Origin: Octopus vulgaris
Taxonomy: Eukaryota
Assembly (NCBI GenBank): GCA_951406725.2
Contig: OX597838.1
Span: 43,896,001 to 43,960,000 of the forward strand
Direction: 5' to 3'
DNA length: 64,000 bases
Part shown: piece by piece, positions 598 through 58,108 of the stretch
Layout of the letters: every line of letters starts with the position of its first letter
How positions within the stretch are numbered: the stretch's first letter is position 1
Notes under the pieces: model-generated
The model's database searches: none
Seen by the model: the letters and a program-made list of their open reading frames with translations, nothing else
Told to the model about the DNA's origin: nothing
Translations under genes and position numbers: made by a program

Positions 598-602
<5 letters not shown>

Positions 603-1013
603 TAGTTATCGCCATACTAATATGGCATTCTTAAAAATAAGAATAAAGCTGTCGCTGATTAGCTCCATGAAGCCATCGCCTCAAGCTAGCTACTTGACAC
701 ACAAACTGCGTCCGTTATTAAACCTTCGAACAGGTCTGTCTACGCTGCATTGAGAAGGGGCAACAACCCTGAAACATGTCTGTAGCTGTCGGACTAGCAG
801 GTTGAAGCGGCTGACCTCCCCTGTTCGAAGGTTTAATAACGGACGCAGTTTGTGTGTCAAGTAGCTAGCTTGAGGCGATGGCTTCATGGAGCTAATCAGC
901 GACAGCTTTATTCTTATTTTTAAGAATGCCATATTAGTGTGGCGATAACTATTAATTTCCAGAAAGGCTGTTGTAATCTCTTTTAAAGAGACTTAGTAAT
1001 TTTAATATTTCTA
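598..1013 (+). mobile_element. Short fold-back PLE pLTR-like element (137-bp inverted arms 598-734/820-956; HHR in the 85-nt spacer)
   Basis: Arms are reverse complements with 1 mismatch seen; flanked by (TA)n on both sides; hammerhead motif in spacer. Confidence 0.75.
744..786 (+). ncRNA. Minimal type-I hammerhead ribozyme, U3-A8 core variant
   Basis: gctgca-TTGAGAA-gggg caacaa ccct-GAAA-catg-TC-tgtagc: helix I, core, helix II, palindromic helix III and UH site all present. Confidence 0.8.
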
Positions 1014-1042
1014 TTATATATATATACATATATATATATATA

Positions 1043-8172: not shown

Positions 8173-8639
8173 CATCACAATCAAGGAACGGCCATAATAG
8201 GCCATTCACCCACTAGAAATAACAGCCAAAAGCTTTAACCGCAAAATAACGTCAATTCCGTAAACCAGGAGAAAATTGAAAAACATTTACCCTGTAATTT
8301 CTTAGACGATGCACCGTTTCATCTTCTGTTTAATGGAAAACTAACCTGATTAAATTAAATCAAGCCAATCTACCATAGGCCCTTAGATTCATCAGTAAGA
8401 AATAGCCAATTTCTTACTGATGAATCTAAGGGCCTATGGTAGATTGGCTTGATTTAATTTAATCAGGTTAGTTTTCCATTAAACAGAAGATGAAACGGTG
8501 CATCGTCTAAGAAATTACAGGGTAAATGTTTTTCAATTTTCTCCTGGTTTACGGAATTGACGTTATTTTGCGGTTAAAGCTTTTGGCTGTTATTTCTAGT
8601 GGGTGAATGGCCTATTATGGCCGTTCCTTGATTGTGATG
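8173..8639. mobile_element. 467-bp palindrome (~231-bp arms, ~5-nt loop), pLTR-like, HHR on both strands
   Basis: catcacaatc...gtaagaaat agcca atttcttac...gattgtgatg; unpaired extension 8070-8172. Confidence 0.8.
8408..8516 (+). ncRNA. Canonical-core hammerhead with ~60-nt helix II insertion; mirror copy 8296-8403 on minus strand
   Basis: aatttctta-CTGATGA-atct...agat-GAAA-cggtgcatcg-TC-taagaaatt; 9-bp helix I. Confidence 0.85.
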
Positions 8640-27478: not shown

Positions 27479-30090
<2,612 letters not shown>

Positions 30091-30096
30091 TATTGC

Positions 30097-30129
<33 letters not shown>

Positions 30130-30197
30130 CATTATTATTATTATTATTATTATAATTAATGTTATTGCTATTATTATTATTATTATTATCATTATTG

Positions 30198-30228
<31 letters not shown>

Positions 30229-30232
<4 letters not shown>

Positions 30233-31903
30233 TAGTTTTATTTTTATTTTTATAGCGTGCTTTCACTTCACTACCGAGCACAGCTCTGTGTGCCTTGGGT
30301 TTGTGCTGTGATTTGTTGTGATGCTCTGATGGTTATTGTATGGAAAGTGTTCTGCGTAGGATGTGTGCAGTGCCCAGTAGTGCAATTTTCTGTATGTTAT
30401 ATGTGTTTGTAAGTCCTGGTGTTTTTGTTATGTATTTGTCTGAATATTTTTTTATCATGCCTAATGCACCTACTATGATAGGAATTGTTTCTGTTTTCAG
30501 ATTCCACATTCTAGTTACCTCTATTTCCAGGTCTTTGTATTTTGAGAGTTTCTCCATTTCTTTTAGAGACACGTTGTCATCTGCCGGTACTGATACATCA
30601 ATTAGAAAGCATTTTTTTCTTCATGGTCTCTGACAACTATATCTGGTCTGTTGGCCTTAATTTCTCTATCTGTGTGTATCGGCATATCCCAGAGTATGGT
30701 TGCTTTCTCGTTTTCTGTGACCTTTTCTGGTGTGTGCCTATACCATCTTTTTTCTGTTGTTATTCCATAATGTTGGCATAGCTTCCAATGTATGTAAGTT
30801 CCAACTCTGTCATGTCTGTGAATATATTCCTTCTTAGCCAGGACTGGGCAGCTAGAGATAATATGATTTATTGTTTCTTGTCCATCTCCACATATTCTGC
30901 AGTTACTTGTAATATTTCTTTTCATTACATGTTTTTGGTAATTTCTGGTGGGAGGCTTTGGTCTTGTGCTGCAATTAAAAATCCCTCTGTTTCTGCTTTG
31001 AGTCCTGAGCTTCTCAACCATTGCTGGGATTTTTCTTTGTCTATTTCTTTTGCGTTTAGTTTAGTCCAGTATTTACCATGAAGGGGCTTTTCTTGCCATC
31101 GTTTTATCATGGTTCTTTGCTGTTCTATTTTTAGTTTGGATTTCATTTTTTTTATAGCTTTTGTTGTTTCTTCATCTTCTTCTTCTTCTTCATGTTTATT
31201 AGGTGGTATGATTTCTTGTTTGTATTTGTCAGCTTCCTTAAATACTGAGAACAGTGTTTTGTTTTGCTCGTGTTTTGCCGCTATCTGGATCAGTTTTCCT
31301 TCCTTCTGAAGTAGATATTTTTGCAGTCCTATGGTGGTTATTTTATAGTAGTTTTCCAGCTGTATAAGGCCTCTACCACCTTCTATACGTTGTATATATA
31401 GTCTTTCTATGTCAGATTTTGGGTGATGCATCCTAGATCCTGTCATTATTTTTCTTGTTTTCCTGTCTATTTTGGTCAGTTCATTTCGTGTCCAGTTAAG
31501 GATATTGTAGCTGTAACTTATAACTGGGACAGCTAAAGTGTTGATACCTATTATCTTGTTTTTAGCATTGAGCTCTGTGTTTAGTATTGATCTAACTCGT
31601 CTATAATATTCTTTTTTATTTTCTCTTTCATTTGTGTGTGTTGTGTCTTATCTAGTTCATGGATTCCTAAGTATTTGTAAGTTTGGCTTTGGTCTAATTC
31701 TTTTATTTCATTTGCTTCATCTAGTGTGATGTTGTTACTCTTAACTAGTTTTCCTCTTTTCATGGTTACTTTGGCGCATTTTTCTAATCCAAATTTCATA
31801 TCTATTTCTTTGGTAAATCCATGAACTGTCTTTAATAGTGTTTCCAGCTGTTTGTCATTTGCAGCGTATAGTTTTAGGTCATCCATATATAAAAGGTGGC
31901 TGA

Positions 31904-37360: not shown

Positions 37361-37672
37361 CAATATATATATATATATATATATATAAACAATATATATA
37401 TATATAAACAATTCCTGAATTGAACTGCGACTGCTGTCCGCCACTGACCATTCAAAATACGACCATCAAGGCATCCCCAGATTTCCCCACCCCCTCTCCA
37501 CATCAGCCTTCTGCTTCTCCTACCAAGAACTCACAACGACCTCGAACACACAAGTGCAAACAAGGGAGTCAGAGAAAGGCAGAATGCCACTTATATCTGA
37601 ACACTACTATAGAAATATTTCCTTAAAAAAACTTTTCTTCTAATTTTTCTAAATTTAATTATTTAATCGTTA

Positions 37673-37710
37673 CAGTTGAAAAGGTCTCAAAATGACCGAA
37701 ACCGGTACTG
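37673..37710 (+). ncRNA. Minimal hammerhead, U3-A8 variant, in (TA)n-flanked island 37408-37765
   Basis: cag-TTGAAAA-ggtc tcaaaat gacc-GAAA-ccgg-TA-ctg; island 3' end resembles 9705-9742 (-). Confidence 0.8.
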
Positions 37711-37796
37711 AAAGATTCACTATAAAATTATCTTAGCATTTTCTATTTTTGACTTGTTTTTTCATATATATATTTATATATATATATATATATATT

Positions 37797-37838
<42 letters not shown>

Positions 37839-46150: not shown

Positions 46151-47122
46151 ATGGAAATTTCATCGAAATTATCAACACTCATCACGATGATTGACACACA
46201 ATCCTCTATTTTAAAGGAAATAGAAAAACAGTCTACAGACGGAAAACTTGGAAATGAACACATAAACTTTGAAATTAAGAATTTAGCTGAAATGATACCA
46301 ACAATTATAAAATCTACAAGAGAAAGCCTACCACAACCTCCTTGGATGTCAGAAATAAACGAAAGAAATCTGGAAAAAGAGGCACACCGAAAAAGAGAAG
46401 AGATACAGAAGACATGGAAAAAACTCCTTAACATAAGAAAACAAAACTTCTGGAAGGCATATAAATGCGAAAAATATGCTGAAATACATTCGAAATGGAT
46501 ATCTTTAGCGGCACCCATACTTCAATTATTTCTCGACAAATATGCTACAAATTACGGTAAAGACACCAGAACTCCGAGAAATAGCATTAAAAGTGGACAA
46601 CCTCACCAACGCAACATACACCAGAACACGTGGCAACATGAACACCCGTTTCACCACGAATCGAAGACGAACTACGGTAAGAACTCTTCCCATTTTGTAT
46701 GCAAACACCCTAATGCACACAACATGAACAAAAAGCACAAACAAAATAGATATTGTTTTGAACAGACCATTAGCAGTAGAAATAACAGGAGATCATTTTC
46801 AAGACCTCAACAGAGATTACCCACAAGAAACTGGACAAAAAACCGATCTAGATCTAGAAGTAAACCCAAATCATTTCTCCAGGTGGTTAAAAACAATGCT
46901 AACAAGAAATTGAAAAGTAGCATACATAATACCAAAAACAAGACAGAAAACATAACGAAACCAAGTAAAGTACCACAACCAAAACGCAAAATTCATCAAG
47001 CAAACATCAACAGGAATATAAATCATAACCAGAAAAAAATCCATTTTTTTACGTCAGGACAACAAACACCGGAGAAAGAAAAAATCCAAGAGGAAACATA
47101 CCCCAAACAACTGAACGTATAG
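46151..47122 (+). CDS. PLE upstream ORF (helical N-terminus, basic C-terminus)
   Basis: 323-aa non-repetitive ORF overlapping the RT frame. Confidence 0.6.
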
Positions 47123-49356
47123 ATCCTAAAATAATTAATTTATCAAAAAGAGATCTTGACAATGATGAAATCCAACTTCTGTCAAAAGGACTGAAATTCA
47201 CACCTACACCAACAGCCAACCACCAAGAATTAAAGGAGGATATCCAAAAATTCTGTCGAAAATTACGACTTGTAGAATTCTTCGCTAACAAAAGTAATGA
47301 GATTGATGAATCCCTAGTAAGGAATAAATCAAATTTCACCCCACCAAAAGGAAGAAATAACTACCTTGACCAATACATTGATATCCTGTCTAAATTTCCC
47401 CTTAGACGCAATACCAATGTTAGGCCAAACATTAGCAAATCAGAGATGTCTGCATGTAAACGTATACAAAACGATCAAACAATAATAATTAAACAAGCAG
47501 ATAAAGGTGGTGCAATTGTTATTATGGATACCGAATACTATAAGGATTTGGTTGAAGACCAACTGAAGGATACAACCTTCTATTGTGAAATACCCGCAAA
47601 TATAGACCACCACATCATGAAAAAGATCAACAACCTGATTTCAACACACCACAACTCACTTACGGATAATGAAAAAGACTACATCACCAATTTTGAACCA
47701 AAACCCAGCAACTTCTACGGCTTACCAAAAATACACAAATCAAAAAACATTCAACAGGCAGTAAAAGAACAAGAAAGTGAGTACATAAAATTATTACATC
47801 CAAAAGACCTAAAACTTAGACCTATTATAGCTGGTCCAGCATGCCCTACACACCGTCTAAGCAATTTTATTGACATTGTTTTGAAACCACTATGTACTTA
47901 CATACCAAGTTTCATCAGGGATGACATCGACTTCCTGTCCCATCTTCCCAAAACAACAGAAACAAATTCAGTTTTACTAAGTTTTGATGTGGTAAGCCTC
48001 TACACCAATATTCCACACGATTTAGGAATAAAGGCGATTAAATACTGGTTAGAAAAACATAGAGAAGTGATTCCCAGCAGATTCACAGTGCCATTTATAT
48101 TAGACACAGTCAAACTTATTCTAGAAAATAACACATTCTTCTTCAATGGAAAGAATTACATCCAAATTAGAGGCACGGCGATGGGAACGAGGTTTGCTCC
48201 CGTTTACGCCAACTCTGTAATGGGATACTTAGAAGAACAACTCTACCAAGAGGTGGAGGTAAACTATGGCACTGGACTTAGAAAGTATATTGAAAAGGCA
48301 TGGAAGAGATACCTAGACGACTGTTTCATAATCTGGACAGAATCTCTAAATACTCTGGAAGAGTTCAATATCCTCCTGAACAACCTACACCCATCTCTCA
48401 AATTTACAAAGGAGATGAGTAGTACCAAATTACCATTCCTGGATATAATGGTAATTAAAAAAGAAACCACCATCACCACAGATATATACTATAAACACAC
48501 AGACACACATCAATACCTAAATTTTAAGTCGTGCCATCCACCACATACAAAACGTAACATCCCATACTGCCTAGCCAGAAGAATTTGTACTATTGTAGAA
48601 GATGCAAATATCAGGAACAAACGCCTAATAGAACTAAGAGAATTTTTGCTCAAACAAAAATACCCATCTCTACTTATAGAAAATGGCATACAGCGGGCTA
48701 TAAAAATACCTATACAACAACTTAGGACAACCCAAGGAAGAGGAAAACAAGAACAAGTCATACCATTCATAGTGACACACAACCCATGTCACCAGAATAT
48801 CTTCAACATTGCCAAAGCAAACCTACCAATCATTGCCCAAAGTAATGAATTAAAAGACATAATCAAGGATCGAGCTATGGTGCTTAGTAAAAGACATCCT
48901 AAAAACTTGAAAACATTACTAACAAAGGCAAAATTTGACCTCAGCAACAAAGACCAAACATTCACGGTATCTAAATGCAATGATAGCCGATGTGGCACAT
49001 GCCAATTCATACATACCGGTCAATATATAAACACAAAAACCGGGAAAATATTCACAAACGCGAATATGAACTGCAAAAGCAGAAATTTAATTTACTGCAT
49101 CAAATGCCCAAATTGTGAAGAAATATATGTAGGTCAGACGGGAAACGCACTATTAGAACGCTCACGTGTACACCGGCAACAGATTAGAGACCCAGAGGTC
49201 CGTCAGATACCTTTGAGTAACCACCTAGCAACATGTGGTCGGAAAATATATATAATATTTCCATTCTACAAATTACACAGCCCAAGTGAAATCGAGAGGA
49301 AAATCAGAGAAAAGAATTTTATTGATAAATTCGAACCCAAGCTAAATAAGCAATAA
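47029..49356 (+). CDS. PLE reverse transcriptase + GIY-YIG endonuclease (frame open from 47029; first ATG 47446)
   Basis: IINLS..LLSKGLKFTPTP, ADKGGAIV, YGLPKIHK, FDVVSLYTNIP, GTAMGT, RYLDD, CNDSRCGTC, LIYCIKCPNCEEIYVGQT; no stops. Confidence 0.93.
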   Translation, partial: PEKNPFFYVRTTNTGERKNPRGNIPQTTERIDPKIINLSKRDLDNDEIQLLSKGLKFTPTPTANHQELKEDIQKFCRKLRLVEFFANKSNEIDESLVRNKSNFTPPKGRNNYLDQYIDILSKFPLRRNTNVRPNISKSEMSACKRIQNDQTIIIKQADKGGAIVIMDTEYYKDLVEDQLKDTTFYCEIPANIDHHIMKKINNLISTHHNSLTDNEKDYITNFEPKPSNFYGLPKIHKSKNIQQAVKEQESEYIKLLHPKDLKLRPIIAGPACPTHRLSNFIDIVLKPLCTYIPSFIRDDIDFLSHLPKTTETNSVLLSFDVVSLYTNIPHDLGIKAIKYWLEKHREVIPSRFTVPFILDTVKLILENNTFFFNGKNYIQIRGTAMGTRFAPVYANSVMGYLEEQLYQEVEVNYGTGLRKYIEKAWKRYLDDCFIIWTESLNTLEEFNILLNNLHPSLKFTKEMSSTKLPFLDIMVIKKETTITTDIYYKHTDTHQYLNFKSCHPPHTKRNIPYCLARRICTIVEDANIRNKRLIELREFLLKQKYPSLLIENGIQRAIKIPIQQLRTTQGRGKQEQVIPFIVTHNPCHQNIFNIAKANLPIIAQSNELKDIIKDRAMVLSKRHPKNLKTLLTKAKFDLSNKDQTFTVSKCNDSRCGTCQFIHTGQYINTKTGKIFTNANMNCKSRNLIYCIKCPNCEEIYVGQTGNALLERSRVHRQQIRDPEVRQIPLSNHLATCGRKIYIIFPFYKLHSPSEIERKIREKNFIDKFEPKLNKQ

Positions 49357-49850: not shown

Positions 49851-49895
49851 TGAACCCGAAGATTGCAAAATTCAATGCATGAAAGTACTAGTTCA
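49851..49895 (+). ncRNA. Minimal hammerhead (U4C core) in the PLE pLTR
   Basis: tgaac-CCGAAGA-ttgca aaattcaa tgcat-GAAA-gtac-TA-gttca. Confidence 0.85.
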
Positions 49896-50081
49896 ATCAG
49901 AATGAATATTTAACATTCTACTATTTCATTTTATTTTATTCAATTATAATATATTATCTTATAATATATCATTATAAGATTGAATATAAAACGTGAAAAT
50001 CAGACAAGGTTGGAATTCTTTTTATTAATATATTCTTCTATACACAATCACACACACCCATATATATATATATGTATATGA

Positions 50082-55448: not shown

Positions 55449-56894
55449 AAGAAGCTTGCTTCCCAACCACATGATTCCGGGTCCAATCCCACAACGTGCC
55501 ACCTTGGGCAAGTGTCTTCTACTATAGCCTCGGACTGACCAAAGCTTTGTAAGCTGATTTCGTAAATGGAAACTGAAAGAAGCCCATCATATATATACAT
55601 GTATAAATCTATGTGTGTGTTTGTGTCTGTGTTTGTCCCTCCTCATCACCGCTTGATAACCGGTGATGGTGTGTTTACGTCGGAAAAAAAGATCAATAGA
55701 ATACGTACAAACCTTTTAAAAGTAAGTCCTGGGGTCGATTTGTTCGACTCTTCAAGACGGAGCCCAAATATGGCCACAGTCAAACAAGTAAAAGAATAAG
55801 AGAATAGATGTAATACCTCTAAGAATTTTACCGGCGTGCAAACGATTCTGCATGTTCTCCTCCTTAGGACAGGATAGAATATTAATACCCCAAAAGTCAC
55901 AAATTATATCATCTTTCACATCTTCCACATAAAATCCAGTTGGCACAGTCCACTTCCTACGTCAATTGCAATGTATTACATGCCACTGAAACTAAACTGT
56001 CTGAAAATATTTGTAGTTCTAAGATATTCCTATATAAGTTCTAAGATATTCCTATTCTAAATTTTCCTATTGCAAAGTGATTGAAATTAAAAACGTCTGC
56101 ATTTTAAATTATATTCCAAAGACCAGCTTAGTAATAGCTATTCTATTTTGTTAAATTCTTCCGTATTTCAATAATTGAGCGAAACAAAGTTAATGCGTTT
56201 CAGTATAAATTTAGTGAAAAAAGCAACACTTTGTATAATTTATTTTCAGTTGTTAGACACAGCATTCGATAAGATAACCTGCACAAAAAGTATACAAACA
56301 AAAACTCAGCAGGCATAAGACAAGGTGTAAGTGCGCGGCCTAGTGGTTAGGTGGTTGCTCTCACGATCGCAAAATCCTGGTTTCGGTTCCCGGACGGTGC
56401 GTATTATTTTGAGTCAAACACTTCGCTTCACGTTGTTCCAGTTACCGGAAATGTAAACGAGTAACTCCTTCGACGATAGCGTAGAGTGGGAATGTTGCGA
56501 TCAAGGTAACTTGTACGATTTGGTAACCATGTAACCGGCCCTAACAGACCTATGACTCAAGACTACTTACTTACATATCATACACCATCACTAATCATTA
56601 AAATAACCTACGCATAACATTCCCTAGCAACCGCTGCTCAATAAAACAACACAGTTCACACATATCGCATAGCGTACTTCGACCATTTCCAAACTTTCTT
56701 GCTCATTGATCTCTTATGAACTCTTTTAAATTTCATGTTCCCATCCACTGAAACAGTTGTAAATTTATTTCTTTGATTTCTTCAATACAACATGAACATA
56801 GTCTTTCCCTTCTTTCCAATGTGCAAAGGTCCAAAGTGGTGGCGCCCATGTGGGTTTCGATGGAAATTAATGCGTTAGACGATTAACACTATAT

Positions 56895-58108
<1,214 letters not shown>

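Follow-up and report, generated by a model that had tools for sequence, protein, structure and literature searches.

The window, by which we mean the whole 64-kb stretch of Octopus vulgaris DNA analysed here, contains the heptamer TTGAGAA at 750 and TTGAAAA at 37676 and 57959, together with TTGAGGA at 57232 and an inverted twin of TTGAAAA at 57759, both on the minus strand. We refer to the corresponding repeat families as F1 (750), F2 (37676), F3 (57959 and 57759) and F4 (57232). The original prediction had taken the first three heptamers for U3-A8 hammerhead cores and positions 57160-57236 for a U3.G8 form, and all four proved to be present and hammerhead-shaped, judged by sequence and by descriptor. 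A relaxed type I descriptor, in which positions 3, 7 and 8 were left free but helices I and II had to be present and helix III had to be palindromic, returned exactly five sites over the window (750, 37676, 57959, 57759 and 57232), compared with 0.07 sites per window in 30 shuffled windows, none of them with a U-A or U-G core. Each of the four cited sites is a complete type I motif whose helix III is palindromic: three helices surround the core with the open end on helix I (helix II of F3 being just 2 bp), and U4 G5 A6, A9, G12 A13 A14, A15.1-U16.1 and H17 occur in all five window sites and in the family copies. Positions 3 and 8 pair as U-A in F1-F3 and as a U.G wobble in F4, and the consensus C-G letters are absent. 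The hammerhead motifs of the window are thereby confirmed as real and far beyond chance.

Rfam returned no hammerhead for the whole window among the 150 matches listed of 394, which were mostly microsatellites matching microRNA models. The F2 site scored 22.9 bits against Hammerhead_HH9 (gathering score 52), and the F1 site gave no hammerhead match at E 10. A C3-G8 minimal control motif was missed as well, so that minimal motifs went undetected with either core.

The window also holds an intact Penelope-like ORF of 775 aa (47029..49356, plus strand) encoding reverse transcriptase (RT) and GIY-YIG domains (RVT_1 and GIY-YIG matches), which served as the C3-G8 comparison family. Its 3' UTR carries a C3-G8 hammerhead (49851..49896, plus strand, core at 49856) with C at position 4, as in 7 of 11 copies of this family; a second abundant C3-G8 family with C4 is represented by loci L094 and L244. 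Elsewhere, a perfect 231-bp inverted repeat (8173-8639) contains two canonical C3-G8 hammerheads whose helix II is long, their cores lying at 8395 on the minus strand and at 8417 on the plus strand, and a non-LTR retrotransposon ORF lies in several pieces at 27737-31647 (minus strand) with (AAT)n tracts between them and CCHC-like and endonuclease-like sequence in its C-terminal region. The genome scanned (G000) comprises 2.8 Gb in 227 contigs and is AT-rich and rich in microsatellites, and the hammerhead copies of the window are insertions into microsatellites, truncated and in part inverted, and are probably inert passengers.

Tandem repeats lacking an ORF

The F1 hammerhead occupies 744..786 on the plus strand, as indicated by its sequence, the descriptor and the family copies. 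Helix I (744-749/781-786) is followed by the core from U3 (750) to A9 (756), with A8 at 755, by helix II (757-760/767-770), by the GAAA box (771-774) and by a palindromic helix III (774-779), and the predicted cut falls after C780. Helix I extends over 733..795 through a UAC bulge opposite a U and a closing helix (733-740/788-795), which has one mismatch (739) in the window copy and none in most family copies, and which covaries between subfamilies in folds of six F1 subfamily copies. We take the bulge and closing helix to be the features by which canonical type I hammerheads make their tertiary contacts. The insertion itself (598..1017) is of mixed orientation: a partial 359-bp unit on the plus strand (743-1017) follows an inverted truncated copy (598-734), and perfect 119-bp arms (616-734/820-938) form a hairpin with the hammerhead in its loop.

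Across the genome, all 33 matches to an F1 pattern with N at positions 3 and 8 were U3-A8. A wider pattern had 2764 matches (10 for the control), and of the 100 listed, 97 were U3-A8, two C3.A8 and one A3.A8 when read by eye, with A8 in every one. BLAST homologues in the sampled DNA, collected with no core filter, were likewise U3-A8 in 43 of 43 distinct cases, while all four bases occurred at position 7. Among eight F1 rows, a helix II pair (G.U/G-C/A-U) and the helix III palindrome (A-U/G-C) covary, with a score equalled in 1 of 500 shuffles that ignore relatedness. Copies stand head to tail with a period of 359-363 bp, the longest arrays among the 100 listed matches having five units, and the sequence upstream of long copies is the tail of their own unit; five-unit arrays of a 362-bp repeat lie at G000:C1:8134003-8135466 and C1:57123658-57125124. 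The predicted unit circle is strongly self-paired (z -7.2 against 60 shuffles), and double-hammerhead helices are the minimum-energy form of two cofolded motifs. Assembled contigs of two runs, whose RNA nature is a guess, cover the F1 motif, and raw reads of two runs from another organism gave no alignment; these results speak neither for nor against expression.

A search around F1 copies found no ORF of their own, and F1 matches the non-LTR retrozymes as an ORF-less tandem repeat of the 150-450 bp class with one type I hammerhead per unit. Its units of ~360 bp resemble those of animal non-LTR retrozymes (Cervera and De la Pena 2020, PMC7229834; Li et al. 2026, bioRxiv 10.64898/2026.07.22.740005), and so does its canonical type I hammerhead with a 6-bp helix I, a 4-bp helix II (the helix sizes given for this type in PMC4209133) and a closing helix, and so does the strong self-pairing of its predicted circle. 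The U3-A8 core of F1 and the U3.G8 core of F4 were not found mentioned for retrozymes in the available parts of PMC7229834 and bioRxiv 10.64898/2026.07.22.740005.

The F4 hammerhead (57160..57236, minus strand) has a U3.G8 core (57232-57226), a long helix II, a 10-nt palindromic helix III and a predicted cut after 57164. It belongs to an insertion (56890..57515, minus strand) of just over one 468-477-bp unit in which no ORF was found, and seven F4 loci of 8-9 kb likewise had no ORF belonging to the repeat. Three direct pairs are spaced 468-477 bp, a tandem arrangement like that of retrozymes; unlike retrozymes, the predicted F4 circle is no more stable than its shuffled counterparts (z -0.9). 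The repeat could be the pLTR of an element outside the sample. Fragments of Penelope-like elements (PLEs) near some F1 and F4 copies (L021, L018/L165, L126, L127, L142 and L250) came from other families or could be tied to neither repeat. A stretch at 1505-1660 of the window matches the middle of the F4 unit at 85%, with the hammerhead missing.

Read by eye, 78 genome matches to an F4 pattern comprised 50 U3.G8, 19 U3-A8, 6 C3-G8 and 3 other cores, with no C3.A8. On a tree of 89 rows built without the columns of positions 3 and 8, A8 and C3 required 12 and 7 changes, fewer than the shuffled means of 17.0 and 9.8, so both cluster. C3.A8 was also absent from 102 aligned copies (a set that includes the 30 best matches to the window copy), which is not a significant sign of covariation within F4 because only 1.85 were expected (p 0.11).

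Penelope 3' ends and the relatedness of F2 and F3

The F2 minimal hammerhead (37671..37712, plus strand) has its core U3 at 37676, a palindromic helix III and a predicted cut after A37707. It lies in a Penelope 3' end, or pLTR (37413..37837, plus strand), that lost its ORF through 5' truncation and matches the 3' UTR of L156, an F2 copy with a full ORF, at 90% identity. The F3 minimal hammerhead (57952..57990, plus strand) has an extra U before the core, U3 at 57959, a 2-bp helix II and a predicted cut after C57984, and is part of two inverted F3 3' ends (57558..58107; 57558-57835 on the minus strand with its core at 57759, and 57840-58107 on the plus strand). Cofolding of two F2 copies gave the double-hammerhead helices in part only, and the F3 motif gave no hammerhead fold, either singly or as a dimer.

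In the F2 genome pattern, 2254 of 2264 matches were U3-A8, with five lacking U3 and six lacking A8, one of these lacking both. The sole C3-G8 match (L365, G000:C13:524788-524810) is otherwise an ordinary F2 copy, so a C3-G8 sister subfamily of F2 was dropped; about 0.005 such double changes to C3-G8 would be expected from independent mutation. For F3 there were 448 matches, with A8 in all 100 listed and U3-A8 in 30 of 30 sampled.

Both motifs stand behind a Penelope-like ORF on the same strand, at ~650-810 bases in F2 and ~160-175 bases in F3. Loci of 3 kb contained PLE ORFs for 15 of 30 F2 copies and 14 of 30 F3 copies, and the full-length ORFs of L153 and L156 are 45-46% identical to the RT/GIY-YIG ORF of the window. 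Domain order and zinc-finger motifs, compared with the clade features given in PMC8557442, fit Neptune-type Penelope elements: a single ORF, RT followed by a C-terminal GIY-YIG, a CX2-5CxxC linker and a CCHH motif, the linker and endonuclease motifs having been read in the window ORF and its relatives. The copies also showed a hammerhead within the pLTR, truncation at the 5' end, ends arranged both inverted and in tandem, and insertion in (TA)n. A short palindromic helix III on a type I motif is shared with the metazoan PLE minimal hammerheads, including the U3-A8 motif of Schistosoma mansoni Cercyon (PMC4209133), and the elements described there similarly have a pLTR behind an RT/GIY-YIG ORF, inverted pairs and mostly solo truncated copies. 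The present set differs from those of PMC4209133 in being Neptune-type, in coming from another animal, in its helix III palindromes of 6-10 nt and in including an A3-U8 family.

The original prediction described F1, F2 and F3 as unrelated, which is only partly right. Over 427 aa the proteins of F2 and F3 share 58% identity, more than either shares with the window's own C3-G8 element (48% for F2 and 44% for F3), whereas F1 DNA had no significant similarity to the 3' UTRs of F2, F3, two further families described below (F5 and F6) or the window ORF. A tree of 19 C-terminal ORF pieces was rooted on one distant outgroup only and left out six rows from families with no visible motif. In it, the C3-G8 family and a U3.G8 family formed a single branch (100/100), and U-A occupied three or more other deep branches; by parsimony, about three changes at positions 3-8 cover the 18 labelled ORF-linked rows. 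We claim no U3-A8 clade, because constraining all U-A and A-U ORF rows to one clade was weakly rejected (p-AU 0.044). Given the tree position of F2 and F3 and the three changes, U3-A8 was most simply inherited by both; F2 and F3 probably share one inherited swap, with U3-A8 ancestral in their group. The swap in F1 may be a separate event, given its dissimilar DNA and its different, extended architecture. Three independent compensatory changes from C3-G8 to U3-A8 would agree with that distinctness of F1 and with the distant U3-A8 families of Schistosoma (PMC4209133), but the affinity of F2 and F3, the deep branches carrying U-A and the short parsimony count make three separate origins very unlikely.

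Pairing of positions 3 and 8 across families

We sampled 80 stretches of 10 kb at fixed positions (800 kb). The descriptor found 32 sites, namely 20 C-G, 6 U-A, 1 U.G, no C.A and 5 other, compared with 6.9 sites in shuffles (0.1 C-G and 0.5 U-A). A search of the genome for GIY-YIG domains (150 scored of 6136 candidates, from which 30 loci and 40 stretches were taken) added the U3-A8 families F5 and b, the A3-U8 family F6 and a U3.G8 family with an extra C before the core. Over all DNA sampled, including that beyond the window, positions 3 and 8 pair in 16 of 16 multi-copy families (7 C-G, 6 U-A, 1 A-U and 2 U.G), with no mismatch, and the predicted covariation of the two positions is thus borne out across families. 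The 16 leave out three multi-row clusters judged to be noise (two in ATG microsatellites and one A.C cluster of 2 rows) and 22 singletons (one of them C.A), two of which turned out to represent families and so were included. A table of C or U by G or A (7, 0, 2, 6) gave a Fisher p of 0.007, for families that are not independent of one another.

The best evidence for covariation lies outside the window, and F6 is the strongest case. This Neptune-type Penelope family (L351, G000:C4:868556-868583; L391-L410), with a protein 54-60% identical to that of F3, is A3-U8 in 76 of 78 pattern matches, two transversions removed from the U-A pair of related families, and its core directly follows a helix I of 5-6 bp. 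The extra-C family (L358 and L389; G000:C4:100776561 and C4:114014148) is 77-79% identical to the window ORF and had 328 pattern matches, with U3.G8 in 90 of the 100 listed when read by eye; its 3-8 register is ambiguous because the extra C could pair with G8, leaving the U bulged out.

U3-A8 is the family consensus in F1-F3 and no sporadic mutation. The original prediction would have fallen had the families shown a C3-G8 consensus with occasional U3-A8 mutants, and since U3-A8 is the consensus (33/33 and 97/100 listed in F1, 2254/2264 in F2 and 30/30 in F3) this is not what they show. AT-biased decay of dead copies, turning C3 into U and G8 into A so that the covariation is merely apparent, would suit an AT-rich genome and can account for scattered U3-A8 copies in F4 and the L358 family. 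However, both changes are present in 99.6% of F2 copies, neither position lies within a CpG, and an A3-U8 family is inexplicable by decay; the family counts refute it for F1-F3, and overall we give it almost no credence.

Five ORF families of the tree had no motif by descriptor, one of them having a single C3.A8 copy (L425). Likewise, L411, L412 and L417-L422, which represent several Neptune-type ORF families, had no linked type I motif by descriptor within ~3.5 kb downstream, and these families may be truncated or carry another variant. A divergent Penelope-like ORF, ~25% identical to the C-terminus of the window ORF, was also observed (L165, 3978-5314, minus; L250, 6376-7896, plus); it is possibly of Hydra type and had no hammerhead directly downstream.

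Predicted self-cleavage and its alternatives

Taken together, we read the four sites as type I hammerheads in the repeats of Penelope-like elements and of derivatives of these that lack an ORF. U3-A8 (or U3.G8) is standard within each family and likely maintains the 3-8 pair that predicted self-cleavage needs; we assign this reading a probability of about three in four. Selection would act only on transcribed master copies. In these, two motifs in tandem, or on two RNAs, would come together by way of the palindromic helix III, and long read-through transcripts would be cut to unit length; the F1 products would probably circularise and be reinserted in trans by a Penelope protein. The 3-8 pair would be exchanged rarely and as a pair, with U-A widespread, A-U arising once, and C-G once beside a U.G sister. 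Selection for cleavage itself is what we infer from these sequence patterns. The 2-bp helix II of F3 and its failure to fold as a hammerhead, and the five tree families with no motif by descriptor, count against this reading.

The structure of Martick and Scott is reported to place the 3-8 pair within the active-site fold. Position 8 provides the general acid by its 2'-OH (PMC6155905) and is the pairing partner of position 3 when the fold is active (PMC9901934). In a PLE hammerhead, single C3 or G8 mutants were dead and the swap restored activity in part (PMC11167929), and in a type III hammerhead the G3-C8 swap alone rescued activity, other double mutants remaining low (PMC9901934). PMC3088659 cites its ref. 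32 for the in vitro activity of U3-A8. Motifs with a short palindromic helix III cut best as dimers (PMC4209133, PMC7229834), and PLE minimal hammerheads cleaved weakly even so (PMC4209133).

The fold might instead be selected for a role other than cutting, such as binding protein, dimerising or letting the Penelope protein select its template, with U3-A8, A3-U8 and U3.G8 as tolerated weak or dead cores. Insertion in vitro proceeds without cleavage, in that hammerhead mutants of an Anolis PLE, whose ribozyme needed the protein, still inserted, and the same study reported no RNA-seq reads ending at the cut site (PMC11167929). The weak activity of PLE motifs (PMC4209133), the poor rescue by swaps other than G-C in one construct (PMC9901934) and the amplification of two families with U3.G8 (50/78 in F4 and 90/100 listed in the extra-C family), which itself speaks against cleavage, point the same way. 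Against such a role, the 3-8 pair is part of the active-site fold (PMC9901934), and G5, A6, A9, the GAAA box and the UH site are kept across families while position 7 drifts. A purely non-cutting role therefore seems to us unlikely, and we retain preserved self-cleavage as the preferred reading.

U3-A8 itself is not new. Natural covariation from C3-G8 to U3-A8 was reported as rare (Perreault 2011, PMC3088659), and ~1,300 U3-A8 motifs were tied to Schistosoma Penelope-like elements (Cervera 2014, PMC4209133), whose Fig. S3 contains two U3-A8, one U3.G8 (Saccoglossus) and no A3-U8 among 56 rows. The variants of PMC3088659 share with ours U3-A8, insertions just before position 3, a weak helix II and U4C; they are called rare there, whereas U3-A8 here makes up about a quarter of genome-sample motifs and A3-U8 is a family consensus. 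Our literature search found no natural A3-U8, which Lunse et al. 2017 and Przybilski and Hammann 2007 may cover. The advance is therefore modest: a known variant in a known setting, to which are added an A3-U8 family, a U3-A8 retrozyme-type repeat and two wobble families.

As anticipated, searches for the canonical core miss such motifs. CUGANGA loses about a quarter of them (U3-A8 makes up 6 of 26 Watson-Crick cores in the 800-kb sample), and studies based on it, such as PMC8557442, which used the string cuganga, undercount accordingly. On the question of what hammerheads do for Penelope elements, the occurrence of four different 3-8 pairs in related families provides comparative evidence for selection on an active-site pair, and the set, including the A3-U8 consensus, offers ready constructs for testing that pair. 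More speculatively, the 3-8 pair may have passed through C-G, U.G, U-A and A-U within the Penelope radiation of one genome, each the consensus of an amplified family and U.G a viable stepping stone, with the A3-U8 family and the U3-A8 retrozyme being active ribozymes, possibly as a Penelope protein relaxes the pair requirement. We regard this larger scenario as doubtful but worth stating; if true, these families would form a natural series with which to test whether cleavage matters for Penelope transposition.
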